Shown here piece by piece: positions 44,036-60,290 of a stretch of 64,000 bases of DNA. This DNA comes from Candidatus Hydrogenedentota bacterium (GTDB lineage: Bacteria > Hydrogenedentota > Hydrogenedentia > Hydrogenedentales > SLHB01). A program made the position numbers and the translations under genes. The stretch covers positions 32,001 to 96,000 of the forward strand of contig BTWA01000008.1 in assembly GCA_045863295.1 (NCBI GenBank). The letters run 5' to 3'. Each line of letters opens with the position of its first letter. The first letter of the stretch is position 1. Below the pieces are notes generated by a model that worked only from the letters and a program-made list of their open reading frames with translations, was not told where the DNA came from and ran no database searches.

Positions 44036-47000
44036 CTACTCTCTTTCGAATCCTTGGCTGGTGAACTTCAACGTCCGCCCGTTCTCTGTCACCGTTCTAA
44101 CTACGTTCTCAGGTGCGCCGGATTGAAATTGTGCTTCTATTTCAAGTGTCACGGTGACATCTGCGCCCACCAGGCCTGCCAAATGCGCGATCACCTCGTC
44201 TGCAACCCGGCTTGCGTCGCGCCCAACACGGGCGGGATCCAGCACCACGGTGCCGTGATATCGCTTTGGCCTGACTTGAATGGGGGCAGGGGACGCACCC
44301 GCGTTTCCAGAATCGCCGCCTGTAGACGGGACTTGAGCATCTCCCGCAACCACTCCCGATTCGCCAGTTGCCGGGTCCGCTTGGGCTTTGCTGGTCTCCG
44401 CCTCCAACTGCTTGCGCGCGACATCCGGCTTGACCAACAGTCCCGGTGCATCCGCGCCAGCCGTGAAAATGGATTGTCCCCCGCGCAGACCTCGATAGCG
44501 ATGCAATTCCTCATCATAAGTGTCCGCAAAGGCGAACGCGTCGTGCTCCCACGTGAGCAACGAGACACCTTCGTTGACCGCGCCCAAAAGGACGTTCGTA
44601 TCCCGCAACCGCGGCAGGTAGATGTACCGTGCAAAATCTTCCGCCAACTGCTGCACCGAAACGTGTTCGCCCCGCCACAACGGTATCTTGTCCAAATCCA
44701 TCCGTAGCCGCGTCGCCGCCAGTTTGGTCACCAACAGTTCCTCGTGCTTGAGCTTCTTGCTCGCGCGGATAGCCAGCGGATCCTGCCCGGTCACACGAAT
44801 GGCATTCCAATGCACCGGGTCCTGGGGCTTGGGTTGCTCAGGAACCAAAAGCCACTGATAGGTTTCCGGAAGCCTCGCCGTTACCGCGCCATCAGCAGCC
44901 GATCTCTGCGTCTCCGCCTGCTTCACCTGGAAGGGCGTCAAACCAAGTTCGGTACGTTCAGTAAGAATGGAATCCCAGGCCAGGTACCGTCTGACCGCTT
45001 CGTCCAAATCCTGCAGGCGCGTCTTGTCAGCCGCCAGGAACACCAGCGCATTGCGATAAAGGCGTGGGCTGTTGCCACGCGCCTCCAGCATGGACTTGGC
45101 GGCCGCGTCGGCGGAGTTCCCCGCATCCTTGGTGTACGGGTGATCCGGACCTAACACGACCAACCGCGCATCCACGTCGTCCGGCACTTCCTGACCAGTC
45201 GCAGGCATGGCGTGCACACGGTTAAAGTCGCCCCGTTGTTCGAGGTCCCTCCTGAGCCGCTTCTCCATTTCCTGCACAACCTTGTCCGATTCGCGCTTCA
45301 ATTGTTCTGCTCGATCCTCCGCCAACTTCGTGACCGTGGGCTGCGTGGAATACCAATACCTCGGCCCATCCTGATACAGATACGTCGCAGCACCGGCCAG
45401 CCTGCGCAATGCATCTCCGAACACCGCAGGCGATTCGCCCGGCATCACGCACCCCAATTTCACCCGGCGATCTTCGATCCCCAAATGCGCAGCGCCGGCC
45501 ATCGGTGCCGACCCCAGGTAGATCGTCCGTGCCACGCGACGGCATGCGGCAAACTTGCCCAGGTTCGCGATCTCACCGTCCAGTCGCAGCGGCAACGAAT
45601 TGGGGCCATCCACATCCTTGGCCAGCACAGGCACCCAGTTATCGGATAAATATCGAGTCAACTCGAATTGCACGCGCGAGTCGTCGATGGCAATGTTGGC
45701 AGGCAGTATCAAGGGATTCCGGTCGCCCTTCTCCCACAAGCTATGGATCACCGCTGCCATGAGCCGCAGCACGCCGCGCGTACGTTGAAACTTTATCAAC
45801 GTCGACCAATCCGTATACAGACGGTCGAATATCTCTGGATGGATCGGATAGGCCGCTTTGATCCGCTTCTCATAGTCCGCATCGCGGCATTCGGGAGGAA
45901 ATTCGGCCTGCTGTGTCCGATACAAGTCGGCAAATTCCCGCGCCACCACGTCCCTGTCCTTGAACTGCTGCGGATCGGACATCGGCTCGAACAGGCGCCG
46001 CCGCACAATCTCAAAGCCTTCTTCCGCGCTGGCCGGCCGCCATGAAGACTCCACTCGACCGATAACATTCCGCAACCGGTCCAACGCTTCGCGCCCCCGC
46101 TGGCCGCCCACTTCCACGTCGTTGGCCTGCGTATGCGGCGAACCCGTCGTGTCCGATGCGGGCAGGCTGATTACCAAGAGACAGTTCTTCGCCAACTTGG
46201 CCGATTCCGTCAACACCTGCGCAAACGTGAATTGCGTTTCAAAACTGCCCGCGGGGAGGTCGCTCTGATCGTGCAACTGCCGCGCATAGGCCACCCACTC
46301 ATCAATGAGGATCAGGCACGGTCCGTATTCATTGAACATCTCTCGCAGTACATCGCCCGGACTTGTCGCCCTCTCGTCATCAGCCTTGATGCGCGCGAAG
46401 GCCTTCTTGCCCCCTAACTGCCAAGCCAATTCACCCCAGAGCGTGTGCACCACAGTCCCGTCCGCCTTGGTGGAGGGATTACCCGGCGAGATCTTATTGC
46501 CCACCAGCACGGCCCGGCGCACGGACGGCAGCGTATCCGCCGCCGCGCCTTTCATTACGGTGTCGACGCCGGACAGTTCGGCGGGACTAATGCCGGAAAA
46601 TAGGTGATACAGCGCCAGCATGGAGTGCGTCTTGCCGCCGCCGAAGTTCGTCTGCAACTGCACCACCGGGTCGCCGCCCCCGGCAGTCAACCGTTGCACC
46701 GCACCCGTCAGCATGCTCTTTAGGCTCTCGGTCACAAAGGTCCGCCGGAAGAATTCCACCGGATCCTTGTATTCCGCCGTTCCTTCCCCAACGTGCACCT
46801 GCCACAAGTCTGCCGCGAACTCCGCTTGTTGATAGCGCCCGCTGGCCACATCCTTGTGTGGGGTCACCACCTCGCGCCAGGGTTTCAAATGGCCCGTGGC
46901 CGCGCTTTCGATGGCCGTGCCCGAACTCTTCCGCTTTTCGCTTCGTACTTGCTCGTCGAAGCGGAGCCGCAACAGCTCCATCTTCATTCGCTCAATATCT

Positions 47001-47389
47001 TCCGCTTGCGGCGCGGAAACGGACACCAGCAGCCGCGAAACCGAATCAAGCACACGATACGCATCATCGCTGGAAAAATTGGCCTGGTGCGCCCACTTGT
47101 TGCGCGCGTCTCGAAGTTCGCTCACCATCGACCGTTCAGCGTTCCCAAGCGTGTTCTTGAAAACCAGATTCCACTGGTTCCACATCACGCCCAACAATGA
47201 AGCGGCATCCCAAGGTGGTTGCTCTTCATCCTTGAAAAGTTTGGCTTGCGAAGGCCCCACGGCGGCCTTTACCTCGTCGAACCAGGTTTGTTGATGCTGC
47301 GCCTTGAGTTCCCGCTCCACAAACGGCTGCAACCCCAGTGTAAGCAATTCCAGCCCCTTGCCGACCCGGTCTCGATTAGTTATTGCCAT
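44036..47389 (-). CDS. DUF499 AAA+ ATPase with N-terminal Swt1-like HEPN domain
   Basis: RNKWAH HEPN motif; LQTNFGGGKTHS Walker A; ILIDEW Walker B; AYPIHPE, FQRTRGVLR. Confidence 0.92.
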   Translation of the reverse strand: MAITNRDRVGKGLELLTLGLQPFVERELKAQHQQTWFDEVKAAVGPSQAKLFKDEEQPPWDAASLLGVMWNQWNLVFKNTLGNAERSMVSELRDARNKWAHQANFSSDDAYRVLDSVSRLLVSVSAPQAEDIERMKMELLRLRFDEQVRSEKRKSSGTAIESAATGHLKPWREVVTPHKDVASGRYQQAEFAADLWQVHVGEGTAEYKDPVEFFRRTFVTESLKSMLTGAVQRLTAGGGDPVVQLQTNFGGGKTHSMLALYHLFSGISPAELSGVDTVMKGAAADTLPSVRRAVLVGNKISPGNPSTKADGTVVHTLWGELAWQLGGKKAFARIKADDERATSPGDVLREMFNEYGPCLILIDEWVAYARQLHDQSDLPAGSFETQFTFAQVLTESAKLAKNCLLVISLPASDTTGSPHTQANDVEVGGQRGREALDRLRNVIGRVESSWRPASAEEGFEIVRRRLFEPMSDPQQFKDRDVVAREFADLYRTQQAEFPPECRDADYEKRIKAAYPIHPEIFDRLYTDWSTLIKFQRTRGVLRLMAAVIHSLWEKGDRNPLILPANIAIDDSRVQFELTRYLSDNWVPVLAKDVDGPNSLPLRLDGEIANLGKFAACRRVARTIYLGSAPMAGAAHLGIEDRRVKLGCVMPGESPAVFGDALRRLAGAATYLYQDGPRYWYSTQPTVTKLAEDRAEQLKRESDKVVQEMEKRLRRDLEQRGDFNRVHAMPATGQEVPDDVDARLVVLGPDHPYTKDAGNSADAAAKSMLEARGNSPRLYRNALVFLAADKTRLQDLDEAVRRYLAWDSILTERTELGLTPFQVKQAETQRSAADGAVTARLPETYQWLLVPEQPKPQDPVHWNAIRVTGQDPLAIRASKKLKHEELLVTKLAATRLRMDLDKIPLWRGEHVSVQQLAEDFARYIYLPRLRDTNVLLGAVNEGVSLLTWEHDAFAFADTYDEELHRYRGLRGGQSIFTAGADAPGLLVKPDVARKQLEAETSKAQADPATGESGVVAGDAQVPSTGGDSGNAGASPAPIQVRPKRYHGTVVLDPARVGRDASRVADEVIAHLAGLVGADVTVTLEIEAQFQSGAPENVVRTVTENGRTLKFTSQGFERE

Positions 47390-47966: not shown

Positions 47967-49010
47967 TTAGCTAAGCAACGCTTTACGCCAATCGCTCTTG
48001 CTATAGTCTTTGGCATCGCCTTTATCCGGTCCTAGGTGCCAATTGATATCTTTTTCGCTCTTATCCACGAGTCGACAGTATCGCCCCTTGATATCGGTCG
48101 ATTCGTTTCTTCCTACCACATGAACAGTCGCACGTGTATGGCCCCAGTATTTGCGCGCCCAATCCCAGTCCGTATCCGGTGCCGACCAGCCGACAAAGTA
48201 GATCTCCTCGGCATTTCGGGATACATCAAATAGACGTTCGTGAACTCTCTGTAGTGAAGTCAGTGCCGCCCACTCCGTCGGACGTTGTTTCATCCCAGGC
48301 GGCACCATCAGAAAATGCAGATCGCTGTGCAGATGCGGGCACCTGCCATGGCCGGTGTGCTTTTCGCGGCCGGTCCCCCAATTGGCCGGCAAGTGCGGGT
48401 CCGGCTTGTCAAACTTCACGGTCACGGTATTGCAGACATCGAACGGGAGATCACAAACTAACCAGTTCAGCGATCCATTCGGCTTGAGGAGATTTACCCC
48501 AGGAGGCCGGCCTTCATTGACATAAAGCACTTCCTTCGATCCCAGACAGTATTCAGGCAGAGCACCAACCGCCATGATCGCCTGATCCAAAAGCAAGTCA
48601 TAGTTGAATGTACAGACTTCGATATCGGGCGTATTCAACAGGTCACGTGCAAATCGTTGATATAGACAGCACCACAAACACTCTCGTTCCGCCTGGTCCT
48701 CTGACTGCATCACAAGTTCAAGACCACGGATGAATACTCGGGAAAATCGCTTCAGCTCGAATGTACTGTGCCCACTCATTCGAATCAGTGTGTCACCGTA
48801 GACTTCCACGTTGGCGTCCACCGATTCCCAATCCAGGAAGGTGTCGTGCGCCGCTTTGGCTTCTGGAATGTCTATGCCATGAATAGACCATGTGTGCGAT
48901 TTGTGCCAAGGCAACTTTTTGAATCGGCAGAGGATGCCGCTCATCGCCGGAATACCCATGGGACACGAGAACCCCGCGCCCAACACCACCAGCTTCTTTG
49001 GATAACTCAT
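47967..49010 (-). CDS. SIR2-like family protein
   Basis: LGAGFS, TFNYD, KPNGSLNW, VPP, FVGWS. Confidence 0.8.
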   Translation of the reverse strand: MSYPKKLVVLGAGFSCPMGIPAMSGILCRFKKLPWHKSHTWSIHGIDIPEAKAAHDTFLDWESVDANVEVYGDTLIRMSGHSTFELKRFSRVFIRGLELVMQSEDQAERECLWCCLYQRFARDLLNTPDIEVCTFNYDLLLDQAIMAVGALPEYCLGSKEVLYVNEGRPPGVNLLKPNGSLNWLVCDLPFDVCNTVTVKFDKPDPHLPANWGTGREKHTGHGRCPHLHSDLHFLMVPPGMKQRPTEWAALTSLQRVHERLFDVSRNAEEIYFVGWSAPDTDWDWARKYWGHTRATVHVVGRNESTDIKGRYCRLVDKSEKDINWHLGPDKGDAKDYSKSDWRKALLS

Positions 49011-49040
49011 TGGGAATTCCTACGCTTCAATCTGAAATCA

Positions 49041-49180
49041 AACCACAGATGGACACAGATTAACACGGATAAGACAGTCGAACGGGAACAGCCCTGGTCT
49101 ATCAGGCGGGCCACACTCCTCCTTTTTTCTCTCATAATTCAATCTTCCCATCTGTGTGAATCTGTGTTCATCTGTGGTTC
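49041..49180. repeat. Inverted pair of 10-mer arrays (hairpin) between GxxExxY and SIR2 genes
   Basis: AACCACAGATGGACACAGATTAACACGGAT (49041-49070) and CCATCTGTGTGAATCTGTGTTCATCTGTGGTTC (49148-49180). Confidence 0.85.
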
Positions 49181-49195
49181 AATTCTTATCCCTGT

Positions 49196-49567
49196 TTACA
49201 GTGAAACCCGCTTCCATTCCAGCTTCGCTCTTTTGAAATTGATGATTAGTCCCGTCTTTAACCCCGCAATCTTCAGGTAATTCAGCATCTGCCCCAACTC
49301 GTGGTCGCCGATTCGCTCTATTACTTTGGCATCCACAATTACCGCGTCTTGTACCACCAAATCCGGGACATACGCGCCCACCGTCTTCCCCTTGTACACC
49401 ACATCGTATGTGCATTGCTGGAGGGCCGACAGTCCGCGAAGCCCCAGTTCCACCACAAGCGCGTTCTCGTACGGCTTTTCCAACAGGCCGTGGCCTAAAG
49501 TATTCAGCACCTCCATCGCCGCCCCGATGATGGCCTCCGTCACGCTACTGTTCGGTGCGCCGCTCAA
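49196..49567 (-). CDS. GxxExxY protein (PD-(D/E)XK-like)
   Basis: IIGAAMEV...LGHGLLEKPYENAL, DLVV, DAK, QMLNYL, GLIINF; start uncertain (frame open to 49717). Confidence 0.88.
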   Translation of the reverse strand: MSGAPNSSVTEAIIGAAMEVLNTLGHGLLEKPYENALVVELGLRGLSALQQCTYDVVYKGKTVGAYVPDLVVQDAVIVDAKVIERIGDHELGQMLNYLKIAGLKTGLIINFKRAKLEWKRVSL

Positions 49568-49588
49568 GCGACATCCCCTGAGAGTTTT

Positions 49589-49715
49589 AACCACAGATGA
49601 ACACAGATGCACACGGATAAGAGCAGGGCCGAGGCTTCGGCCGTTAGCCGGTAGCCGGTAGCCATCTTTCCTCACTTCTCTCTCCTCTTTTCTCTCTTCT
49701 TCCCATCTGTGGTTC
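49589..49715. repeat. Inverted pair of 10-mer arrays between DUF1156 and GxxExxY genes
   Basis: AACCACAGATGAACACAGATGCACACGGAT (from 49589) and CCATCTGTGGTTC (49703-49715). Confidence 0.8.
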
Positions 49716-49717
49716 AA

Positions 49718-52700
49718 TCACAATTCCAAATCCCCCTGCTCGGGCGTAATCACCCGCTGTTCCCGTGCCAGGCGCACGATTTCCGGCCAGCTTTGTACCA
49801 AGGCGTTGTACGACAGGGCCTCGGCCGATCGTTTTTTGCGCTCGCACAGTGTGTACAGCCGGTACGCCAATTCCCGGGCCGTTTCCGCCTTGGCCCCTAG
49901 CTTGCCTGCGAGTGCGGCCGCGGCCGATTCGCCGCCCCCTTCCAGTACGCGAATAAGGTGGTGCACGGTCTCCCATACTGTCAGGCGGGTATCCGTGGCC
50001 GGGTCCCAGCTCTCGGGCAGTTCCGACGGTTTAAACAACCGCACTTTGCCCTTGCCGGCCTTCAGGATGCCCGCCTCCACCATGCCGTTCACGCTGGTGT
50101 TTTTCGACTTCGACAATTGCTCCGCCACGCCGTACTCGCCTTCCGCGAATCCAAACTGATCGAACCACGCCAAAGCCCAGCGTGTGTCGGGATCGAAATC
50201 GCCTTCCTGTTCGGCGAGGGCTTCATCCAACGTCTGATTGATGAGGGCCAAGGCCTCGCGCACCGTCAGCGGTTTGCCTTCCGCGTCGAGCACTTTCGCG
50301 AATCGCGTATACACGGCCATGCCCGGGCCAATCGCCGCCTGGGCCAAATCCACAGGGGCGATGTTGCCGCGCTGTAAGTGAAGAAGGGCAGCAGGCAGTT
50401 CGGCTTTGAGGGCATTCAGAAATTCGCGCCGCGTGGCGGTCGGCGCCTCTTTCGAACGTGGACGACCCACGAGCACTATGCTGGAGGCCAGGGCGTTGGT
50501 GCCGGACCCAATCATGCGGTTGCTGAGTTCGGTCCGCATGGGCCACGTGCCGCTTATGGCAAACCCCGCTTCGATAACCGCCGCCAGGAACGTATCCCAA
50601 CCCGTGCTGGCGGTACCATCGATTGCGTCGCTCTCGGCTTGCTTGAAAGCATAGTAGATGGTGACGGGGAAAGCTGGATGCGCCTGTTCGGCGAGACGGC
50701 TCATGGCCTGTGTCATGCCATTGAGAAAAAAAGTCTCAGCTTTTTGTTTATTGCCATGGCGATAAGGGGTAGCAACAAGTTCTTGGGCCTTGGGCACTGC
50801 CAACGTGGAGAAATCTTCCGCAAAAGCTGGCTTAAGGGAGCGACGTAGCCAAACATAGAAGAAGTCGGCAAGATCAGCATAACCAATATTATCGTAATAA
50901 GGCGGGTCTGTAGAAACTACACGATCAGCCGATATAGTTTGAGCCTGCGCATCAGCCTGTTGTGCATACCCATGTGGAGACTCTGGAAATGCGCAAATGG
51001 CTTTTTTCGCCCATTCAACTCCGCTGGATACGTTGCCCGAAGAATCGGAGAAAATGTTTGTTTCAACGTAGTCCCACGTCATAGGAATAGCTTGGCGACC
51101 AAAAGTATTTCGAATAAGTTCCTTACTCGAATGCCACGTGCAGATCGTTGACCAGTAGTCAGCTGCTTTGTCAATGGTAAACGCCAAATACACCGCCACG
51201 GCGTCGGCGTAGTCCTGGGCGGTGGGTATGGGTGGGGCGCCTTTGGCGGGTTTGGGGGCGTGTTCGGGGAAACCCGCCGCGAGGGCATCCTGCTTCACCC
51301 GTACCCGCGCCTCCTGCACCAAATCCGAAAACGTCGTCAACGCCACCAACTGCCGTGGCGTGAACAGGTCGCCGAACGTGGTGAGGCCGTAATTAGGTGT
51401 CTTGAAGTCACGTGGATTGACAGGCAAGGCCAAATCTGGCTTCCATGTTGGCCGTGCCTTGAGAGCGATAGCTTCCATCTGTGAAGTTGGCGAAAGATAT
51501 ATACGCCCATTCTCACCTTCCGCCACAATAGCCATTAGCCTTGCGCCCATAAAACCCGTCTTGCCTTGATCCCGAATGTGATCATACGTAACAGGCACGC
51601 CTGACATCAGGCAACGAAATGCTGCGCGTTTGCCGGCTGTGGTACCTAGTCTGGCGGCCTCCGCATCCTTTGGCTTCCCCACTTTGACCGTGAATCGGTA
51701 ACCGCCGTTTTCTATCACCGGTTCCACGTAGGCTTCCTTGCCCACCTTGGTGGACAGCATAAAGGTTGAGGCCAAGGGTACATCGACATCCGCATACGCT
51801 GGGTTGGGGCTCTTGACGGTGCGCGCCCAAAGCCAGGCGATGACGGTAAGTTCTTTAGCGGTTAGGACGGAGGACTTAGGATATAGGGGGACTTTGTCGT
51901 GGGGGTTTTTGGCCCAGTAGGTATCGACTTCTTCGCGGGTATAGTAGCGGCTCTTAGCCGGGTCAAAATAGACTTTGGCCTTGGGGTATAGGTGGCCAAT
52001 GCGCTTCTCGGCTTCGTCGCGCATCCATTGACCGTAGTAGCGGACATCGGCGGCGAGTCCGGCTGCGCCTTTCCATTCTCTAGCGAATAGCAATTGGGAG
52101 TTAGGATTTAGGGGGGAGGAGGCAGTCGATTCTAGCGATTCTCGCGAAACTTGCGCCGAAGCGTGCTGAGCATCTTGCCCACTTCCACGATCAGACTCCG
52201 CGCCACGCTTGTTTCCGTGACTTGCATCCATCCGATCTCCTCGCAAAGCGTGAGAAACGTCTCCGTCTCCGCCAGGGAACCTTGCGCTATGGCCAGAAAC
52301 TGAGCCCGCTCCTTTTCGGATTCTCTTGTCCATCCCTCCGCGATGTTGGCTGGCACTGACGCTGCCGCCCGTGTGATCTGCGAACGCATCCCGTACATTT
52401 CTTCCTTGGGAAGATGCGCTACCAGACGATAGACCTCTTTTGCCAGGTCCATCGATTTCCTCCATACCATCAGTTCTCGATAGTGAAGTCCCATCGCCCC
52501 CCCTAAGTTCTAAGTCCTCACCACTTTCTTCCCTACTATGTCCTAAATCCTCTGTTCTACTCGCTCCATTGACGGGCGGTTGCCCGGCAAACCGCGGCGG
52601 TATCTCGATCATCGCCTTGTTAATCAGCACAGCAACCGGATTCAGATCGCTCGCGTAGGCTTCCAGTCCGAGGCGTTGGGCTTCGAGAGGGAGTGCGCCG

Positions 52701-53125
52701 CCACCGGCAAAGGGGTCGTGGAAAGCGGGGAGTTTGTAACGGTCGAAGAGTTCCTTGGCGCGAGGGTGGTCGGCGTTCTCGGCGCAGGCGCGGCGCCAGC
52801 TTTGCCAGATTTCCTCGCGGGCCTGCTGGAGCACGGCCTCGTTTGTGGTGTTCTCCCATTTGACGAGTTCTTCAATAATCTTGAACAGGCGCTGCCGTTC
52901 CTTGTTCTGCGCCTTTTCCGTGGGGAACAGGTCGGGCCATGCGGAAGGGTCGTCAACCATTTGCGCAAAGATGACGGCCCGCGCCGCCGCCAAAGGCCGC
53001 CGCGCCCACCAGAGGTGCAACGTGGAAGGATGCCCGTGTCGAATAGACTTCTCCCGCGCGGAAGCCACGTTGATCGCTTCCAAAGGCAGGGCCACTTCAA
53101 TGAGTTTCTTGCGGATCTTGGTCAT
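49718..53125 (-). CDS. DUF1156 adenine-specific DNA methyltransferase with an about 150-aa insertion
   Basis: [20 protein letters not shown] motif, TDPPYYD catalytic motif, TWPMRTE. Confidence 0.92.
52132..52494 (-). CDS. Four-helix-bundle protein (23S rRNA IVS / Avd-like), nested in DUF1156 in another frame
   Basis: [16 protein letters not shown]...[27 protein letters not shown]...[14 protein letters not shown]; purine-rich RBS. Confidence 0.92.
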
Positions 53126-53183
53126 ATAACCCACACTTTCAAAACCCCCCATTTCCTAAATCCTATCTTCTACCTTCTACCTA

Positions 53184-53762
53184 CTAGTATTCCAAGCTCC
53201 ATGAAGTATCGATGACGCGGGGCAACCCTTTGCGCTCGATGGCACGCAAACACTCGCGCAGGGCTTCCGTCACGTTTTCGGGCACGGGGTCCTTGGGGAA
53301 ACCACCCGCGATCCGGAAGATATCCGGAGCTGGCACGACGGTCTCCAGGATTGCCATCGCAGAGGCGTCGAACAGGATAATCGTGGCAACGGGATTCCGC
53401 GCATAACGCGGGGTGGTGACCCAGCCCATCCGGTCACCGGCCCTGAGCCGCCACAAGTTGGGCGCGTCCATGGGCGCATCGGGCACAGGCGGCGCATTGG
53501 CACCGGCGGCATTGTAATTATTAACCCACCGCATACCCAGCAAATTGGACATTTCCGTTGGGTGGAGTTCGACCCAGGAGGGTAAATCGAAAGAGCGACT
53601 GGTCACTGTCACATAGTCGCCGTCGCGTGTGTACCATGCATCATGCAGACCCCAAGCGGGGGGCTCGTAGATGGCCGATGTCAGCCGGAACCAGCCCAGC
53701 AAATCTCCGGCCCGGCATGACAGGCGTTGTGTCTGGTCAATATCAAAAGTGATTTCTACCAT
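53184..53762 (-). CDS. Hypothetical protein
   Basis: 192-aa ORF; its 5' end is duplicated at 56411-56545. Confidence 0.55.
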   Translation of the reverse strand: MVEITFDIDQTQRLSCRAGDLLGWFRLTSAIYEPPAWGLHDAWYTRDGDYVTVTSRSFDLPSWVELHPTEMSNLLGMRWVNNYNAAGANAPPVPDAPMDAPNLWRLRAGDRMGWVTTPRYARNPVATIILFDASAMAILETVVPAPDIFRIAGGFPKDPVPENVTEALRECLRAIERKGLPRVIDTSWSLEY

Positions 53763-53846
53763 AAATTATCGCTCGAAGATGTTGGGTGCCCCAAGTCTTC
53801 AGTCGGTATCACATGCATGGCGCGCGACCTGTTTGCTACAAGGACT

Positions 53847-54869
53847 TTATCGTCGGCCTATCACTTCAGTCTCTTGACCAGCAGCCGCTTTTTTCTCTGA
53901 CCGCGCGAGTATTTCGTTCGCAAGAGACTTAAAGTCTAGATAGCATTTCGACACCGCCGCGGCATGGGCTCCAATTGCTCCATCCGCAGGCGACAATTTG
54001 AAAACCGGTTTTCGAGCATCTTCCGCGAGCGGCATCAGGCTTTGGTAGTTCTTAATGAATCCAATCCGATTAGGGTCGGCCTCGACATTCACCTCAGTGA
54101 TTGGCTTACGCAGGACATGGGTTGTGTAAACTTGGGGAATCTTGGAAACCCAACGTTGGTAGGCTTTGACAGGACGATTCCTTCGCTCAACATGCTGCAT
54201 GACGACATAACCCGCAGGCGTCATGGAGCCGGACGGCATTGGTATGTTTAGATCTTCAGGCTTCTCATCCAACATTTTTTGCCAATGCTTTCTCCAAGCA
54301 TCAATGGTTGGGCCGAGGTTCTTCAAACCCTGCAGAGAGAACAGCCCCGGCGCAAGCGGCATTACGATATTATCGGATGCAATCAAAGATGCCCGATTGA
54401 TAGCGCCGAGATTGGGTCCAACATCCATCAGAATAACATCGGCGTCTAAAGATTCCGCTGCATGGTGAACAATGCGGTAAAAAGCGGTCGTTGTGCGAAA
54501 CGCACCTACATCTCCCATAAAACATTTGGGCCACGCCTCGGAGAGTTTGTCCTCGAATCGGGACAGACCCAGGTCTCCTGGGAGAAGAAATAGATTTGCA
54601 TTTAGCTTCTGCAATGGAGCAACAGCAATATCCCCCGTGTTTTCGATAAGCGGAGAAATGCAGGCCAAAATGCTTTTGTTCTCGCCTTCTTCCGGCCATA
54701 AGTCTATCAAAGTGTCGTCATCGAGAAACATGCTTGTGAGATTGGCTTGGGGGTCCAAATCAACCGCGAGGACCTTTTTGCCTAGTTCGGAACACATCCA
54801 TGCGAGGTGATATACAAGAGTGGTTTTACCAACGCCGCCCTTGTTATTGAAGAAGGCGATGGTTTTCAT
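53847..54869 (-). CDS. ParA/Soj-family ATPase (defence-island type)
   Basis: FNNKGGVGKTT, DLDPQANLT, DVGPNLGAINR. Confidence 0.9.
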   Translation of the reverse strand: MKTIAFFNNKGGVGKTTLVYHLAWMCSELGKKVLAVDLDPQANLTSMFLDDDTLIDLWPEEGENKSILACISPLIENTGDIAVAPLQKLNANLFLLPGDLGLSRFEDKLSEAWPKCFMGDVGAFRTTTAFYRIVHHAAESLDADVILMDVGPNLGAINRASLIASDNIVMPLAPGLFSLQGLKNLGPTIDAWRKHWQKMLDEKPEDLNIPMPSGSMTPAGYVVMQHVERRNRPVKAYQRWVSKIPQVYTTHVLRKPITEVNVEADPNRIGFIKNYQSLMPLAEDARKPVFKLSPADGAIGAHAAAVSKCYLDFKSLANEILARSEKKAAAGQETEVIGRR

Positions 54870-56059
54870 CTGAGGATTCCCTTGATAGTGGCCAGAAAAT
54901 GAGCTGGCTCATTAATATTAAACTCAGCGGGTGGGTTACCGTTCTCCTTCAATGCGTTTTGGGCGCGGACGATTCCCCTGCCGAATTGATTTACGTATCC
55001 CAGGACCTTCATGGCCTCGGCAATCTTTGGATTGCGGTAGTCATTCTGGTTGGGAAAGGTTTGAGGCGTGACGGAACCGTAGAGCCCGCCGGGATTTTGA
55101 ATTTCGATGCGGTCACTGAACCGGTATAAGCGAATGGGCGAATTGGACTGGTAATCGCGGTGCATCACAGCATTCATTAGAAGTTCTCGTATAGCTGTCG
55201 CGGGATACGGTGTCCGGCTAATTTCTTTTAGAGTCGACACTGATTCCGGATACATGGGGATCATGGTTTTTACAAAACTATCCAATTCACGAAGCAGGTT
55301 TATTAGATCGCCTTCAAATCGTCGTTCATCGAGCACTTCTGATTCAAGACCTTCACCTTCAAAATGCACGTATTGAATAGCGGCCCCTGGAATCCAATTC
55401 AATGTATCATGGGCGAATAGAATCGCTCCTGCATTTGTGGCGCATTTATCTTTGGTTGACCACAAACCTAAAGACGCCATCTGTAGGAGCATATCTCGAT
55501 TGTTTTCCTCGATAAGCTCTGGCGCGATTGCAGCACTACGGTAAGTAAGTTGGAACAGGTCAAGTGCAAGCTCATTCTCGTCGCATCCCTTGCATGGCAT
55601 GAGGTCGAAAGTTCGGGCGTGTGATGTTCGACGTTCGGTTAGAATTCGCTCATCCTGTTCTCCCGCGATCGCTTTACGCGGCCCGCGACGTATCCAGACT
55701 TGTCCCTTATAACGGACAGGAGGAATATCTGAAGGCCTCACTTCGACGACGGCAAGGTCTCCTTCTGGCAATGAGACCCTTTCCACTACCATGGAAGGCA
55801 ATGGTACGATTTGCCCGGAATCCGCGTGGCTGGCAAGATTACGCAAGAGTTCGTCCGAGACATTGACACCCGTGATGGTTCCGGTCGAATCGCTCGCGCC
55901 GATGATCAGATAGCCTGGAAGATTATTTCCTGGCATGTCGTTTGCAAATGCGCATATGGCCTCGCAAAACTTGCGGCTGTCCGTTGTCGAAGTAGTTCGT
56001 TCGACCCGGGCAGACTCCATGTCTGCCAGCAAGTTCCTTAGTTCTGTCTCGTTGATCAT
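54866..56059 (-). CDS. AlbA_2 (Schlafen-like) plus HATPase-like protein
   Basis: ESARVE, ICAFAN..G.LIIG, RELLMNAVMHRDY, IEIQNPGG, RNPKIA; ATGA overlap with ParA gene. Confidence 0.88.
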   Translation of the reverse strand: MINETELRNLLADMESARVERTTSTTDSRKFCEAICAFANDMPGNNLPGYLIIGASDSTGTITGVNVSDELLRNLASHADSGQIVPLPSMVVERVSLPEGDLAVVEVRPSDIPPVRYKGQVWIRRGPRKAIAGEQDERILTERRTSHARTFDLMPCKGCDENELALDLFQLTYRSAAIAPELIEENNRDMLLQMASLGLWSTKDKCATNAGAILFAHDTLNWIPGAAIQYVHFEGEGLESEVLDERRFEGDLINLLRELDSFVKTMIPMYPESVSTLKEISRTPYPATAIRELLMNAVMHRDYQSNSPIRLYRFSDRIEIQNPGGLYGSVTPQTFPNQNDYRNPKIAEAMKVLGYVNQFGRGIVRAQNALKENGNPPAEFNINEPAHFLATIKGILR

Positions 56060-56410
56060 TTGCCGCCTTCGGTTATGCCTGGCAGGGGACTCTCCAACTG
56101 AGTGGCCATGCAGGCAGTATGTAGCCGTAGACTATCAAATTCGTGCGCGATAATCTCGCTAGAATTGAGTTTCTGCCGTAAATTGCTCCTTTTGGGCCAC
56201 ATACCGGCACTGTTGGCAAGATATTGCATGAAGCGGACATTGCGCTGATTGGGGTTGAAGTCGACTAGCAGATTGGATATGTCGGACTTGACAGACGTAT
56301 TGTGTTGAAATGGAGGTACAAACAGTGTTGATGGACGGTGCCTTTTTTATGTGTGTGAGAAACTTGGACATCTCAATTCACGGTGTGCGTGGCAATCCGT
56401 AAGCAACTAC

Positions 56411-56545
56411 GCATCATGCCAAGCCCAAACGGGTGGCTCGTAGATGGCCGATGTCAGCCGGAACCAGCCCAGCAAATCCCCGGCCCGGCATGACAGGCGC
56501 TGTGTCTGGCCAGTATCAAAAGTGATTTCTACCATAAGTTGTCGC
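56411..56545 (-). pseudogene. Truncated duplicate of the 5' end of gene 53184-53762
   Basis: 135-bp ungapped repeat of 53638-53772, about 11 mismatches; MVEITFD...HDA then stop. Confidence 0.8.
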
Positions 56546-56586
56546 CTTGTAGGAACCCGACTAGTTTGATTGGCTAGGCTTACCCC

Positions 56587-57666
56587 CTACCCTTCGTTTC
56601 GCAGCCATAGTACGAGTAGCAGCCAAAATACGGCAAACAAGAGCCAAAGTATCACAAGCAGTAGTAATCTGACTTGTTCTTCATAAGGAGTATACCTGTT
56701 TAAATCATCGCCCGAATTGTGTTGTATGTGGCTTGGATTCATTCTGGATCCTGGAATTGCGGACACGTCTCGCAACAGTTCCAGAAGTGAATGCACGGGT
56801 ACATAGGCGCCGCGTCGTCGAATTTCTCTCGCGCAGATTTGACCAACGTCGGGGACTCTTTTTTGCAATATGATGCACAGGATGATGTCGAGCAGTATGT
56901 TCCGGAAAAGTGGAGCAACGGAGACCGATAGTGCGGAGCATGGAATGAGAAACAGGACCGCCGCGAAGGAAAGCATATTCAGCACGACAAGCAAGAAGAC
57001 GCATAGTATGAAGCAGATGGAAACCGTATATGCCCAGAGTTCAGCAATGACCCAGTGTGCACGGCCGACCTCCGGGTAAGCCCGTTCTTGAATCCGTGAA
57101 ACGACCGGGTCCACAGTTTCTTTGCTTTCTTCGGCAAAAGGGGCATGGGGTTCTTGCGCCAAACGGCCGGATATCTTCGTGGCTTCCGCCTCACCTTGCG
57201 ACTCGGGAAGAGTTACTCGTTGGACTCCGCGGGCGAACAGGGCATACAAGGGCATATTCGCTTGATGGTATGCCTGATTCTTGTGTTGATGTTCCGACTT
57301 GGCAGTAGAATAGAAGCCTCGTTTGATTCGATCCAACTCGACTTCTCGATTGTGATTTGTCGATCCCCTCCGTTTGCGATTCCTTTCCTCATTGACCGAT
57401 ATGTTCGCACGAGTATCGGTGTTCTCCGAATACCGTTCGTCGTCAAGGTCGACCTTTGTCGCCCCAGAGCCACCTGTGTAAGCCCAACCGGATTCGACCA
57501 AATGGTTGAGCGTTCTGACATCAAATTTATCTCCAACTTTTAGTCCTCGCTCTTTAATAAGGTAGTTGATTCCCTCTTCCTCAAGCTGAAAGGTGCACAT
57601 ATACCCGCCAACATTGGATCGAATGTAATAGCCTCGGCCATCGCGATACCTATTAAAGGTAGGCAT
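56587..57666 (-). CDS. Hypothetical membrane protein
   Basis: Soluble N-terminus plus about three TM helices. Confidence 0.55.
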   Translation of the reverse strand: MPTFNRYRDGRGYYIRSNVGGYMCTFQLEEEGINYLIKERGLKVGDKFDVRTLNHLVESGWAYTGGSGATKVDLDDERYSENTDTRANISVNEERNRKRRGSTNHNREVELDRIKRGFYSTAKSEHQHKNQAYHQANMPLYALFARGVQRVTLPESQGEAEATKISGRLAQEPHAPFAEESKETVDPVVSRIQERAYPEVGRAHWVIAELWAYTVSICFILCVFLLVVLNMLSFAAVLFLIPCSALSVSVAPLFRNILLDIILCIILQKRVPDVGQICAREIRRRGAYVPVHSLLELLRDVSAIPGSRMNPSHIQHNSGDDLNRYTPYEEQVRLLLLVILWLLFAVFWLLLVLWLRNEG

Positions 57667-58041
57667 GACTATTCCTTGTCCTTCGCTTGCAGACGGTTCT
57701 GGCTTTCCTGTTTTCGTACCTGCACACGATCTTGGTGCGGCCGAGTTTGGGATGTTCTACAGTTGCGACCAGGCAAATCGGCATGTCCAGCAGGGTCTCC
57801 AGGAACTGAATGAACTTGTACTGTAAGTTTGTAGGCACCAGGCGCTCCCACTCGGCAGGTACAATGGGCCAAGCCACGCCATTCGAAAGAACTAAAGAAC
57901 TGCAATCCAACGTAAAGACAAGTCGTCGTTCGTAGCGCGCCGGCAAAGGCAGTTTGGCCAACCTGCGGAGCGTCAGCAGAGGTCCGGCTGCATGGCCTCC
58001 ATCCAGCCCTTTACCGGGTCGTTCATGGTCCTGCCATTATC

Positions 58042-58590
58042 TTACTTGGGTTCGCATCCGTGCTGTTGCCACCAAATCCTGTCCTGATCGCGTTTGGTCA
58101 CTGCCCGCGCCTTAATACGTTCGTGTTTTCGCGTTTCCCTTTCTCTACGGTTCTGTTCGTGTTCCAATTTCGTTCGTTGTAACCGTTCAATGTGGTCACG
58201 ATAGTGGGCTTGCATGTTGGCCAGGACCTCTCCGCCCCATGTGCCCTCCAGGCATCTTGCTAACTCGAGTTCCGCATGCACGTCCTTCCCCATTTCCTGC
58301 CAAAGGCGATGAATGATTTTCCGCGTGACTGGCTGTAGTTTTTGCGCTTCCTCGATGTCTGGGCAAAAGGATCTAAATGCATCTATAACTCGGCGGGTTG
58401 CGTTTGCCCCCAGCCTTGGGGAGTTTTCATCGCTATACCCCATTGCCTCGAGCAATTTCTGTACAAATACGCAACTACAAATACCACAGCCTGGAAAACA
58501 GAACTCGACGTCGGCATTGGCATGGAGAAACTCGCAGAACCAATCCCCACATGGGCCAAGAGGCACTGTATTTCGCGTGTTCGTGCTCAT
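58042..58590 (-). CDS. Hypothetical protein (Cys motif, charged C-terminal helix)
   Basis: CFPGCGICSC; ATGA overlap with DUF262 gene. Confidence 0.55.
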   Translation of the reverse strand: MSTNTRNTVPLGPCGDWFCEFLHANADVEFCFPGCGICSCVFVQKLLEAMGYSDENSPRLGANATRRVIDAFRSFCPDIEEAQKLQPVTRKIIHRLWQEMGKDVHAELELARCLEGTWGGEVLANMQAHYRDHIERLQRTKLEHEQNRRERETRKHERIKARAVTKRDQDRIWWQQHGCEPK

Positions 58591-60290
58591 GGGATTTCGT
58601 ATTCGGACTCAACTTGTTCCGTACGGTTATGTATGCCTGTTAACCTCTGTATTTCCTGCCACAGCGCCTCTTGCCGCCATGCGATGAAGTGATCAAAGTC
58701 GTCGCGCACAAGCGGGGACTCATCCCCACGCGGCAGGCAATGCGATGACAGCACTGCGTCAAGCGGAAATCCGTCAGTATCGCGAAGGCGCGCCAAATAA
58801 ATCGAAGGGGGCTTGTCTCCGATCATCTGGTTTGTCGTACGGTCGATCAGCGTTCGGTTCAGTACACAATCCCGCAACCGCGCTGGCTTTACACCTTGGC
58901 GATCCAGATACGCGGCCGGAAAGACGTGGTGGTCGTCAATTCCACTCGATGTAATCAATTTTCCAGTTATGACCGATTGGGTGTGAAAATCCCGCGCACC
59001 CATTCCCAGGATTAGGCATATTGCGCTCCGGTATATGGAGCGCTGCTTGGGCGTTGTTTCGCGTAGAAAATTCGGATCGAATCGAGCTTTAGAAACGGAA
59101 TCAGGCGGGTCGCCACCGGTGAGCCACGCGCAAAGCTCCGTGACATCGCGTGCGGCCTGGCTGTTCGGCGCATTTTCATAGACTTGGCCAAAGGAAACAC
59201 ACCAGAACCACCGTTTGAGCTTTTCACGGTAAGACCCTGCCTCTGCGGTCTTAGGCATGCCTAGCTTGGCCAAGACTGCTGCAAGCGGAATCAGAATGGT
59301 TTGATAAGGGAGCCATTTGGGCAACACGACGTTGCAGTCATCCCGAAGTATTTCCAGCCCCAATGCAAGTCCTCGAATCGCCTTGGGCCAGTATTCATCG
59401 ATGTCTGCTGCAACCAGATCGAGCACGTCGCTCCGTTTGCAGGACGGCGTCTTTCGGGAAACGAGGGCAATACTCTGCAACACGTAGTAGGGATCGACAC
59501 TGTAGTCTTCAATTATGGGGAATTCTTCAAGAGTCGCGTCCCATAGCGCCCTCAAATTGATTCCCTGAGGCCAGAATCGTGCAGTCAGTAGCTCGAATGG
59601 ACTCAGGCGCACACCGGTCCGGTTCAGCGTCTCAAAGATGGTGCATAGAGCATCCGCCTCGGTCTTGTCGGAGAGCGTGACGACAGGAAAATGATAATCG
59701 TCAATAGTACTGAGCCATCTCTCTTCGATGTGATCGAGCGCATCCTCCAACGCGATGCGCTCTTTGTCGGGTAGATGGCGCGCGACCTTACGCGCCCATT
59801 TACCAAAGCCACCTGACCCGTGTTTGAGCACGGAAAGGGGCAGTAACAGTTCCTTTGCCTGCATTTCAAACGCCTCACGCCGTTTGACCCATTTTGTGGT
59901 CGAACGAACGTTAAAAATGGCTTCGTCAAAGTCGGCACCTTCAATTAGAAGATTCAAACGAATGTAGTACCGATGATCGCCAACGCCATAAAACGCCTGG
60001 TATAGCGAGGTGAGCCGTTGTTGTCCATCCAGTACGAGAAAGGTGTGCTTCGCGCCATCCAATGGTGGCGCTCCCTCGAATTCACGTGCAACAAAAGATC
60101 GTTTGACGTCGCGCACGCGCAGAATGCTTCCAGCAGGATAGTTATTGGCAATGGAAACGACCAACTCTTGGGTCGCGCTGGGCTCCCACACAAAATCACG
60201 CTGAAAATCGGGCAAGACCATGGTTCTTCCATGGATCTCCGCCAGGAGTTCTTTCAGAGCCCGGGGGTTGGTGTCTTCAAAAACACTCAT
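58587..60290 (-). CDS. DUF262 / GmrSD-like nuclease with C-terminal HNH-like domain
   Basis: LPDFQRDFVW, LDGQQRLTSL, IFETLNRTG, HHVFP...N...TN. Confidence 0.9.
   Translation of the reverse strand: MSVFEDTNPRALKELLAEIHGRTMVLPDFQRDFVWEPSATQELVVSIANNYPAGSILRVRDVKRSFVAREFEGAPPLDGAKHTFLVLDGQQRLTSLYQAFYGVGDHRYYIRLNLLIEGADFDEAIFNVRSTTKWVKRREAFEMQAKELLLPLSVLKHGSGGFGKWARKVARHLPDKERIALEDALDHIEERWLSTIDDYHFPVVTLSDKTEADALCTIFETLNRTGVRLSPFELLTARFWPQGINLRALWDATLEEFPIIEDYSVDPYYVLQSIALVSRKTPSCKRSDVLDLVAADIDEYWPKAIRGLALGLEILRDDCNVVLPKWLPYQTILIPLAAVLAKLGMPKTAEAGSYREKLKRWFWCVSFGQVYENAPNSQAARDVTELCAWLTGGDPPDSVSKARFDPNFLRETTPKQRSIYRSAICLILGMGARDFHTQSVITGKLITSSGIDDHHVFPAAYLDRQGVKPARLRDCVLNRTLIDRTTNQMIGDKPPSIYLARLRDTDGFPLDAVLSSHCLPRGDESPLVRDDFDHFIAWRQEALWQEIQRLTGIHNRTEQVESEYEIP

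Follow-up and report, generated by a model that had tools for sequence, protein, structure and literature searches.

One important question raised by this locus is how a complete gene can lie within another protein-coding gene without interrupting it. In the window, as the whole 64,000-nucleotide stretch of DNA analysed here is called, a methylase ORF of 1144 aa (49718-53152, minus strand) crosses a 120-aa ORF of the same strand (52132-52494) without a stop codon. The small ORF lies in the +1 frame relative to the methylase, since (53152-52494) mod 3 = 1. The sequence-only reading of this region had described a four-helix-bundle (4HB) ORF nested on the same strand, one base off and with its own ribosome-binding site, in a methylase frame left unbroken over a G/S/R-rich insert. 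The nesting was confirmed by the ORF coordinates and by protein profiles, and a purine-rich Shine-Dalgarno-like run was found immediately 5' of the ATG.

The 4HB protein matched PF05635 with 125.7 bits (cut-off 33.8) over residues 6-110 of 120, and TIGR02436 with 124 bits (cut-off 24). Alignment with 79 relatives revealed 47 columns conserved in at least 90% of them, including the R..S...N..EG core; R42, S46, N50, E53 and G54, each conserved to at least 90%, are all present in the window protein. This core motif of the family, R...S...N..E(G), is given in the available part of PMC3936711. Of the earlier label "Avd/IVS-like", the second half fits PF05635, the intervening-sequence family; identity with Avd was rejected by two models (NF033474, 36.1 bits for a cut-off of 80; PF22296 bAvd, 26.3 for a cut-off of 40).

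The large ORF was assigned to HmaB through a full-length match to PDLC00660 (1490 bits, in two stretches, one on either side of the insert) and the presence of HmaC and HmaA in the neighbourhood, the latter located about 0.5 kb past the end of the window (contig C8:96491-100060, E = 0). Only DUF1156, MethyltransfD12 and UPF0020 were detected in the Pfam scan of the 1144-aa product. The position of the cassette is the HmaB linker that joins the methyltransferase core to the target-recognition module. In the source annotation, only the C-terminal 791 aa of HmaB are called as a gene (P0001). Read in the host frame, the insert yields a low-complexity peptide rich in Gly, Ser, Arg and Asp (70% G/S/R/D/E/A/P, 16% hydrophobic), and this region alone (200-345) gave no database match at E values up to 1e-5. 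The AlphaFold2 model of HmaB including the cassette had a mean pLDDT of 83 and a pTM of 0.83, with 770 residues at pLDDT of at least 90, whereas residues 212-348 fell below 50 and were modelled without secondary structure. The GxxExxY gene that follows HmaB, with inverted repeats at 49036-49070/49150-49184 and 49586-49618/49703-49717, is a different, neighbouring cassette and is separate from the 4HB element.

Table 1. Positions of the nested cassette, its parts, the host gene and its neighbours in the window
Feature	Position	Strand	Basis
HmaB (DUF1156 DNA adenine methylase, Hma defence system)	49718..53152	-	1144-aa ORF through the cassette; PF06634 E 2.1e-32; PADLOC HmaB PDLC00660 E = 0
Whole cassette, 477 nt, host residues 196-354	52091..52567	-	Alignment and gap analysis against homologs; missing in most
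5' arm, 73 nt, purine-rich; Shine-Dalgarno-like G run at 52498-52504 just before the ATG	52495..52567	-	Pairs with 3' arm
4HB gene, 120 aa, ATG start, +1 relative to host frame	52132..52494	-	PF05635 E 1.1e-36; TIGR02436 E 2.9e-36
3' arm, 41 nt, pyrimidine-rich, complementary to 5' arm	52091..52131	-	Sequence, inverted repeats
Inverted-repeat arm, 20 nt, 85% complementary to 52498-52517	52097..52116	.	Repeat search
Inner 10-nt perfect pair	52103-52112 with 52542-52551		Repeat search
Outermost helix in RNA fold	about 52557-52565 with about 52082-52090		RNA fold
HmaC (DUF499 ATPase), carrying a HEPN_Swt1 domain at its N-terminus; partner gene within the Hma system	44036..47389	-	PADLOC HmaC E = 0; PF18731, PF04465
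GxxExxY / PDDEXK_3 gene immediately following the HmaB stop	49196..49717	-	TIGR04256 E 2.1e-37, PF13366; hairpin repeats bracket the gene

Comparison with homologs placed the boundaries of the cassette very close to those proposed from the sequence alone (52094-52565). The earlier statement that homologs possess only a short linker at this point was also borne out, the gap at the insert site being shorter than 40 residues in 112 of 119 close homologs. A long insert was present in the remaining 7/119 and in 3/150 family representatives, and every long segment that could be read as DNA contained a 4HB ORF. For a wider survey, 80 genome loci and 80 metagenome loci were picked by the 4HB protein alone. 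In 30/80 genome loci (3 more were cut by contig ends) and in 32/80 metagenome loci, the 4HB gene separated the N part of HmaB from its C part, always at this one site. In these HmaB-nested copies (33 + 32) the cassette was always on the host strand and the 4HB gene always in the +1 frame relative to the host. The cassette recurs at exactly the same site in HmaB genes of many phyla. Cassettes with related arms and 4HB genes also occupy two different sites in HmaA helicases, and others lie in Eco57I/MmeI-type methylases and in one N6_N4 methylase. Cultured carriers are among these loci, namely the Chloroploca or Viridilinea isolates of L039/L040 and, with the cassette in hmaA, Lamprocystis purpurea DSM 4197 (L031). 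HmaB turns out to be a natural scaffold on which in-frame insertions of several kinds are tolerated.

The host frame was then followed through the nested copies. Among the genome loci, the N and C parts of HmaB were in one frame with 0 stops in 28/30 (28/29 informative), the two exceptions being L020, which contains a run of N and is uninformative, and L007, with a real frameshift in the 3' arm. The gap was a multiple of 3 in all 28 open loci (28/28), although its length ranged over 21 distinct values between 408 and 573 nt. An apparent 9-nt length difference within the L017/L018 group was discarded; it is absent from the aligned part and probably reflects where the tblastn matches end. In the metagenome set the frame was open in 31/32 loci, or 17/18 once near-identical copies had been removed. 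Over the 4HB coding sequence itself, the host frame was open in 33/33 HmaB-nested copies, whereas the third frame was open in 0/80 loci (2-12 stops in HmaB-nested copies) and the host-equivalent frame of free-standing 4HB relatives in only 6/31. Shuffling of synonymous codons within the genes gave a mean chance of an open frame of 0.197, against 26/26 observed open. The arms, which are DNA outside the 4HB protein coding sequence, behaved in the same way: stop trinucleotides in the host, 4HB and third frames of 27 loci numbered 0, 34 and 68 in the 5' arm and 0, 16 and 30 in the 3' arm, so that none of the 148 in both arms fell in the host frame. Selection holds the host frame open over the arms and the gene; relatedness among the nested copies means that the loci counted are not fully independent of one another. 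The host frame stays open far more often than chance would give, and similar insertions do not usually break it, the outcome that the sequence-only reading had named as counting against it. Signs of decay are visible in some carriers. The break lies within the cassette in L007 and L134, and a stop or frame change lies further downstream in HmaB in 6/18 non-redundant metagenome loci, as well as in L038 and L015, for which reason an open frame over the cassette does not prove a working enzyme.

The RNA fold of the window cassette contained a terminal stem around the ORF (z = -2.6; 0/100 shuffles equally stable), and RNAduplex analysis of its arms gave z = -3.7. An arm-arm duplex with z < -3 was obtained in 24/29 loci, with a mean of -4.2. 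The sequences of the arms vary by locus and include several heptamer types, and arm pairing co-varies, since arms that differ among loci still pair. In 20/29 loci the paired 5' segment ends no more than 10 nt from the start codon, and an ATG with a purine-rich leader was present in all nested copies that could be read. The 3' arm of the window cassette contains no Shine-Dalgarno-like sequence to restart the C-terminal part of HmaB. Heptamer arrays in the arms are short and imperfect, mostly of 2-7 units, and a perfect tandem array is absent from the arms in the window. Other HmaB genes contain similar arrays that lack the ORF. Complementary flanks closing a stem round the insert, as in rRNA intervening sequences, are found in the cassette, which supports the earlier description of an intervening-sequence-like cassette in a protein gene.

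The history of the cassette was compared with that of its host. On a tree of 169 HmaB cores, 29 of them with the insert, its presence requires at least 19 changes, at least 12 of which are forced by well-supported branches. In Mantel tests over 19 loci, the N and C parts of the host were correlated with each other (r = 0.72, p = 2e-4), whereas 4HB and host were not (r = 0.01, p = 0.45). The 4HB ORFs of L108/L109 and L127 are 96.9% identical, while their 300-nt flanks share 77.7% and 83.4% identity; for L108 and L130 the values are 95.4% for the ORF, and 76.3% and 83.5% for the flanks. In the L108-type comparisons the jump in identity begins right after the PPVN codons. The informative high-identity pairs come from the metagenome set only. 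Among species-representative genomes no pair of cassettes exceeded 81% DNA identity, which gives no sign of recent transfer among these and indicates that most copies are old. A tree of the 4HB protein alone was poorly resolved (7/75 inner branches well supported) and too weak to trace transfers between host genes. The cassette and the host gene have decoupled histories. Together with the recurrence at one site and the occurrence in other defence-gene hosts, this lends support to the earlier proposal of a candidate mobile element of defence operons. The cassette and its borders revealed neither a transposase nor a nuclease nor a direct-repeat footprint, and the 4HB gene is the cassette's sole ORF. 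An autonomous transposable element was consequently rejected, there being no transposase or recombinase ORF and no flanking direct repeats.

The assembly was checked against independent data. Run X1, possibly the source sample, has a contig that was built independently and agrees with 51000-52799 with 0 differences. Other studies also have runs with pieces identical to the cassette and its 3' junction (X2 records 11 and 12; X5 record 28; X3 record 20). A search for RNA sequencing runs containing the stretch gave none. The misassembly that the sequence-only reading had considered as a source of error was not seen in these contigs, which confirm the sequence. Joints skipping about 538-553 nt (52039-52057 to 52593-52596) occurred in X1 and X3, where the likeness threshold was 88 and the sides were short (23-27 nt). 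These joints were not counted as evidence, and they probably come from other HmaB alleles that lack the cassette.

Taken together, these data probably reflect a mobile, intervening-sequence-like cassette in HmaB, tolerated because it is translated straight through as a disordered loop. The cassette consists of a purine-rich 5' arm, a 4HB gene that brings its own ATG and Shine-Dalgarno sequence, and a pyrimidine-rich 3' arm complementary to the first. Ribosomes reading HmaB would pass through all of it and give the protein a surface loop, disordered and about 140-190 residues long, with the enzyme remaining functional, while the 4HB protein would be made separately from its own start. The stem formed by the arms may mask this start, and host-frame ribosomes, by melting the stem, may expose it, a form of translational coupling. 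Spread between genes could occur by site-specific insertion or by conversion via the conserved flanks, and frame-breaking copies in a methylase needed by the cell would be purged. Since imprecise deletion would be penalised equally, we propose that the gene serves as a safe haven.

Other explanations have to be weighed against this one. That the arrangement is an artefact or a dead gene, i.e. a chance open frame in GC-rich DNA, a misassembly or a young pseudogene, is scarcely credible. The G+C content of the region (about 60%) does lower stop density and only a C-terminal piece was annotated at the source, but the third frame is never open, the shuffled genes are open far less often than the real ones, host-frame stops are absent from the arms, the sequence is confirmed by independent contigs, and the remainder of HmaB is predicted to fold with high confidence. 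It is also very improbable that the insert never appears in HmaB because it is dealt with at the RNA level, whether RNase III cuts the stem, with excision and religation or a split mRNA, or ribosomes hop over it. The long-range stem around the ORF would suit such a process, as in rRNA intervening sequences, in which the same 4HB family is found (PF05635; available part of PMC4990558). However, the open host frame, the multiple-of-three lengths and the stop avoidance in the arms would then be unneeded, yet all are observed; moreover, the pyrimidine-rich 3' arm offers no ribosome-binding site for a C-terminal restart, and neither an intron or other RNA family nor a Hint/intein domain in the host-frame product was detected. 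The Rfam search on both strands of 48500-53500 gave 0 matches at E values up to 1, for rRNA, introns or any other family. Between the two fates suggested from the sequence alone, frame, lengths and arm stops accordingly favour tolerated dual-coding DNA over an insert that is removed from the RNA or bypassed in it.

An ancient fixed feature would imply one entry into an ancestral hmaB, domestication (e.g. as a regulator or partner of Hma), vertical inheritance and many precise losses. The identical site and +1 frame of all HmaB-nested copies, the age of most copies and the strong conservation of the 4HB protein, which fits a function useful to the host, are in keeping with this explanation. We consider it unlikely, because the insert is rare among close homologs and family representatives, its state changes repeatedly on the host tree, 4HB and host do not co-diverge whereas the two host halves do, nearly identical cassettes (95-97%) sit in alleles with flanks of 76-84% identity, and related cassettes occupy HmaA and unrelated methylases. 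Repeated precise loss would also lack an obvious mechanism, since there are no flanking direct repeats. The arms may, on the other hand, act as a phase-variation switch, in which 7-nt slippage of the heptamer arrays toggles the HmaB frame; being a statement about function, this is compatible with mobility. L134 is without exactly one 5' arm heptamer present in L135/L136 (otherwise ~100% identical over 900 nt) and its frame is broken, and the near-identical L108 and L127 differ by a 21-nt indel in the 3' arm with the frame kept. Such a switch is nevertheless quite unlikely: the single clear 7-nt case could be an assembly error in a repeat, the arrays are short and imperfect and form no perfect tandem in the window, and off states are rare (1/29 and 1/18), whereas sampling of known phase-variable genes commonly turns up both states.

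Translation straight through a mobile cassette may also be part of a broader scheme, which we put forward only tentatively and regard as doubtful. Nuclease-free 'homing' cassettes would form a widespread class aimed at linkers that join the domains of anti-phage proteins (HmaB, HmaA, Eco57I/MmeI-type and other methylases) under strict dual coding. The 4HB product would be an Avd-like nucleic-acid-binding protein which, translated through stem coupling, helps to copy the cassette into empty alleles, and the heptamer arrays would make the host phase-variable by 7-nt slippage. If so, an intragenic mobile element would find both safe havens and regulatory targets in defence genes, which also host inserted defence genes.

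A limited literature search yielded no published account of a PF05635 gene lying within a protein-coding gene. The cassette would extend the intervening-sequence concept from rRNA to protein-coding genes and provide, beside inteins and introns, a third way for a selfish element to reside in an important gene, namely by being translated through in another frame while selection polices every stop codon, the non-coding arms included. Because gene callers split or truncate the host, as in the 791-aa piece kept here, intact defence methylases and helicases are probably being taken for pseudogenes, and nested genes may escape annotation as a whole class. The PF05635 family is large and enriched near CRISPR-Cas, DGR and restriction systems, and to our knowledge it has no known function. 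A defined context (same site, same frame, coupling to a defence gene, signs of transfer between alleles) could finally allow a function to be assigned.

Several known systems resemble the cassette in part. Phasevarions depend on phase-variable methyltransferases in which the copy number of a tandem repeat sets the frame. The cassette likewise has short tandem repeats inside a methylase ORF, with one 7-nt variant seen, but here the arrays are short and imperfect, lie within a gene-bearing inverted-repeat cassette, and are in frame in almost all sampled copies. Rickettsia palindromic elements and MITE-like repeats are gene-less and of about 100-150 bp, and occur in frame in protein genes. Like the cassette, palindromic elements are hairpin-forming selfish DNA inside ORFs, in a tolerant surface region and with the frame kept; unlike these elements, which use many sites in one genus, the cassette occupies one site of one family in many phyla. 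As it carries a conserved 120-aa gene, classification as a gene-less in-frame palindromic repeat was rejected. Inteins and homing introns are selfish too, occupy fixed sites in important genes, are patchily distributed and have histories uncoupled from those of their host genes, as the cassette does, but the cassette has neither a Hint or homing-endonuclease domain nor an intron RNA family, and the frame evidence indicates that the insert stays in the protein and is not spliced out. An intein was rejected on the Pfam scan and the low complexity of the insert peptide, and a group I or II intron on the Rfam result.

Avd, the accessory protein of diversity-generating retroelements according to the available part of PMC10053308, belongs to the same four-helix-bundle fold family and is a remote homolog of the cassette protein (bAvd Pfam model, E 1.1e-05); no sign of a retroelement was found in the cassette. 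In the passages available from PMC11232893, Hma is a helicase-methylase-ATPase defence system with inserted defence genes lying between hmaA and hmaBC, and HmaB had no effect on phage T4 in the experimental study. Here, too, other defence genes separate hmaA from hmaBC. The insertions treated in those passages, and in the one available on the BREX-related 'BR' methylases (PMC12839542), are between genes; a gene nested inside hmaB or hmaA is not mentioned in them.

The closest resemblance is to rRNA intervening sequences. By location the cassette is not one of them, since it lies in the HmaB ORF, with no rRNA match in 48500-53500. In Leptospira, 23S rRNA intervening sequences contain an S23p / PF05635 ORF. 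The intervening sequence in helix 45 of the Coxiella burnetii 23S rRNA carries an ORF of the same kind (available part of PMC4990558). Like the cassette, these sequences combine a PF05635 ORF with complementary, stem-forming arms, occur sporadically at a fixed site of their conserved host gene, and count as selfish. The cassette differs from them in that it is not simply cut out and its host is a protein gene, whose frame is kept by selection while the nested ORF overlaps a second, presumably translated frame.

In profile searches the small ORF matches PF05635 (E 1.1e-36) and TIGR02436 (E 2.9e-36), which places it clearly in the four-helix-bundle (4HB) family, known originally from intervening sequences of 23S rRNA. 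Neither Avd model gave a score above its cut-off, and an identity as Avd was rejected. The large ORF is HmaB, a DUF1156 adenine methylase belonging to the Hma defence system (helicase-methylase-ATPase), as indicated by its match to the PADLOC HmaB model (E = 0), which is split in two by the insert. The HmaA gene lies on the same contig, about 0.5 kb past the end of the window. The ORF coordinates and profile matches bear out the sequence-only reading, which had described a 4HB ORF shifted by one base inside an unbroken DUF1156 methylase frame. Its expectation that homologs have only a short linker there also held when the homologs were aligned, the linker being short in 112 of 119 close homologs and a long insert being present in 7 of the 119. 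The same reading had named misassembly as grounds for refutation; an independently assembled contig showed 0 differences to the window across 51000-52799, and cassette pieces identical to those of the window were also found in sequencing runs of other studies; among the runs containing the stretch none was of RNA. This indicates that the observation is real and correctly placed.

Coordinates of the nested gene, its host and neighbouring features in the window
Feature	Position	Strand	Remarks
4HB gene, 120 aa	52132-52494	minus	within larger ORF, +1 relative to it
HmaB ORF, 1144 aa	49718-53152	minus	stop-free across the 4HB gene
Cassette (extra segment relative to homologs), 477 nt	52091-52567	minus	HmaB residues 196-354
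HmaC	44036-47389	minus	PADLOC model
Candidate defence genes splitting the Hma operon	47967-49010 and 53184-63999

The ATG of the 4HB gene lies directly behind a G-rich, Shine-Dalgarno-like run. The gene is flanked by 73 purine-rich nt upstream and 41 pyrimidine-rich nt downstream, which are mutually complementary, and in the RNA fold these arms close a terminal stem around the whole ORF, Shine-Dalgarno run included (z = -2.6; 0 of 100 shuffles were as stable). No Rfam family matched the cassette region. Read in the host frame, inserts of this kind encode a peptide with 70% Gly, Ser, Arg, Asp, Glu, Ala and Pro and 16% hydrophobic residues (28 inserts). An AlphaFold2 model of the whole 1144-aa HmaB was obtained from an 80-sequence alignment (pTM 0.83; pLDDT ≥90 for 770 residues). 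Since residues 212-348 have a pLDDT below 50 and are devoid of secondary structure in this model, the insertion point is a linker, where a disordered loop can protrude. In related methylases the target-recognition insert is described as following core strand 2, and the cassette site lies at about that place (PMC12839542).

The arrangement recurs at the same HmaB site. One-genome-per-species contigs were searched with the 4HB protein alone, disregarding the host frame, and yielded a first set of 80 loci with carriers from at least 10 phyla by record titles. The 4HB gene lay between the N and C parts of HmaB, at the same site and strand, in 30 of these loci; 3 more were cut off by contig ends, 5 had an uninterrupted HmaB a few kb downstream, and HmaB was missing at 42. 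The N and C parts were in one frame, stop-free between them, in 28/30, with insert lengths of 408-573 nt (21 distinct values), all of them multiples of three. As for the two exceptions, L020 contains a run of N and is uninformative, and in L007 the 3' arm carries a true frameshift. For a second set, again chosen irrespective of the host frame, 24 aligned nested 4HB proteins served as the query against metagenome contigs and gave 80 loci; 32 were nested in HmaB, and 31 of these were open. After loci with 4HB DNA ≥97% identical to a first-set or another second-set locus had been dropped, 18 nested loci remained, 17 of them open. The survey of nested 4HB ORFs proposed in the sequence-only reading thus found a host frame that is predominantly open, not insertions that usually break it.

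Four tests indicate that the open frame exceeds chance, as that reading had asked. The host (-1) frame was open throughout the 4HB coding sequence in 33/33 HmaB-nested copies, and the third frame in 0/80 loci. Among 31 non-nested relatives the same frame was open in 6, the rest having 1 to 8 stops; for this count the nested loci and five others of ambiguous or decayed status were set aside, as were matches that contain N or span less than 300 nt. When synonymous codons were shuffled within each nested gene, retaining the protein and the codon usage of the gene, the mean chance of an open host frame was 0.197, against 26/26 observed. The arms offer an independent stop test, because they do not encode the 4HB protein: in 27 loci, stop trinucleotides in the host, 4HB and third frames numbered 0, 34 and 68 in the 5' arms and 0, 16 and 30 in the 3' arms. 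The nested copies are related, so the frame trials are not fully independent, but their insert lengths, arm sequences and hosts vary widely. The host frame is held open by selection.

The arms also co-vary. Their sequences differ from locus to locus, with several types of purine-rich heptamer, each having its complement on the other side, and the duplex between the 5' and 3' flanks was more than 3 standard deviations stabler than shuffled controls in 24/29 loci (mean z = -4.2). The paired 5' segment ends ≤10 nt from the start codon in 20/29 loci, and the ribosome-binding site therefore usually falls within the stem. Every readable nested copy begins with ATG and has a purine-rich leader, and 47 columns of the 4HB protein are ≥90% conserved (79 sequences). 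For these reasons the 4HB protein is probably expressed from its own start.

In order to follow the insert on the host phylogeny, a FastTree of 169 HmaB cores was built with the insert columns removed. It held 29 rows with the insert and 140 without (every third close homolog plus family representatives of 880-1060 aa), and excluded L007, L020, L038, loci with a C part shorter than 650 aa, and the proteins P0001 and P0172. Insert presence required at least 19 changes, at least 12 of them forced by well-supported branches, and only 3/150 family representatives carry the insert. The two parts of the host, N and C, diverge together across 19 loci (Mantel r = 0.72, p = 2e-4), and the 4HB protein tracks neither of them (r = 0.01, p = 0.45); the 4HB tree itself was too short to resolve. 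Between the metagenome loci L108/L109 and L127 the cassette is 96.9% identical and the 300-nt host flanks 77.7% and 83.4%; between L108 and L130 the values are 95.4%, and 76.3% and 83.5%. The identity jump in the metagenome pair starts directly after the PPVN codons. In first-set pairs with similar flank identity the ORF identity was at most 81%, and most cassette copies are old.

Related cassettes, with arms and 4HB gene, were also found in other hosts, always placing the host in the -1 frame. Eco57I/MmeI-type methylases carry one just upstream of motif I, an N6_N4 methylase carries a nested copy, and HmaA helicases carry it at two sites about 15 residues apart (L009 versus L026, L031, L033, L035, L048 and L055). 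These HmaA sites, situated between the helicase domain and NOV_C, flank an APYLDYRPL motif, and five of these loci have an uninterrupted HmaB downstream. The window genome has a second PF05635 copy (L002, contig C40), which stands on its own between uvrA and a gene for flagellin, with a tRNA-like stretch beside it; a third match (L003) is weak.

Some cassette carriers show decay. In L007 and L134 the break falls inside the cassette, and HmaB has a stop or a change of frame downstream of the cassette in 6/18 non-redundant metagenome loci and in the first-set loci L038 and L015. At the otherwise invariant Tyr of the HmaB motif GKEAYVEPV, L113 has TAG (near 4815) and L108 has TGA (near 4683), which may reflect parallel decay, shared ancestry or recoding. 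Two Chromatiales loci (L068, L081) have truncated 4HB genes, with about 90 residues matched, beside short N-terminal HmaB fragments; they are what is left of nested arrangements that have decayed.

Other insertions were observed around and within hmaB. A GxxExxY/PDDEXK_3 gene with a purine-rich leader follows directly after the HmaB stop, in the frame of HmaB with one stop codon between, and is bracketed by hairpins sharing one repeated motif (49036-49070/49150-49184 and 49586-49618/49703-49717); this region (49036-49717) resembles another gene cassette flanked by hairpins, distinct from the 4HB one and here intergenic. Some HmaB ORFs reach 1324-1675 aa through further in-frame insertions (L146:2755-7782, L136:1478-6307, P0055). 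One of these, itself encoded in the host frame, is an IS200-like Y1 transposase (RAYT-like, PF01797) domain at a second HmaB linker (C-part residues ~272-294) with inverted GC-rich repeats on its flanks; others are ORF-less heptamer arrays after an EPVIE motif and elsewhere. The HmaC of the window is a fusion of an N-terminal Swt1-like HEPN domain (predicted RNase) to a DUF499 ATPase. A SIR2-like gene lies between hmaB and hmaC, and the ~12 kb between hmaB and hmaA hold a ParA-like ATPase with a 192-aa protein of no assigned family, an AlbA_2/HATPase_c_4 protein, a DUF262-like (HEC-05/PDC-M55C) protein and a TmtA-like giant ORF. The split operon agrees with the "insertion hotspot" behaviour described for Hma (PMC11232893).

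To the observed architecture, recurrence, frame constraint, arm co-variation and decoupled history we add a proposed mechanism. HmaB would be translated through the cassette, which would form a disordered loop; ribosomes in the host frame would open the stem, and the 4HB protein would then be translated from its own start. Insertions or deletions breaking the frame would be purged, making the host gene a safe haven for the cassette. That HmaB is indispensable to its carrier we infer from sequence constraint; the experimental Hma study reports protection by HmaA on its own, with HmaB having no effect on T4 (PMC11232893). RNA-level excision, as happens to such elements in rRNA, is improbable as the main fate here, because it would remove the need for every observed frame constraint and because the 3' arm is pyrimidine-rich and has no restart site.

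As to how the cassette came to lie in so many alleles, a single ancient insertion followed by many precise losses has to be weighed against a moving or converted element. No transposase is encoded in the cassette and no target duplication was seen at it. The changes on the host tree, the Mantel decoupling, the near-identical cassette in diverged alleles and the other hosts favour the moving or converted element. The arms may also be a source of variation: the metagenome contig L134 has one heptamer (7 nt) fewer in the 5' arm array than L135/L136, which breaks its HmaB frame, and is otherwise ~100% identical to them over 900 nt. The difference stems either from slippage in nature or from a faulty assembly; from this single case, arm slippage could switch the host gene off and on.

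The PF05635 family is described between genes in cas loci (PMC3936711) and near DGRs (PMC10053308). In our literature search no account of a PF05635 gene lying inside a protein-coding gene came up, and the cassette fails the defining test of Avd, intein, intron and autonomous transposon alike. With the ORF-containing 23S rRNA intervening sequences it shares the protein family and the stem-plus-ORF design, but it differs in host molecule and in its own fate. The palindromic repeats of Rickettsia, which sit in-frame in protein genes, likewise preserve the frame but contain no gene. Inteins and homing introns share the population biology of the cassette, by a different chemistry.
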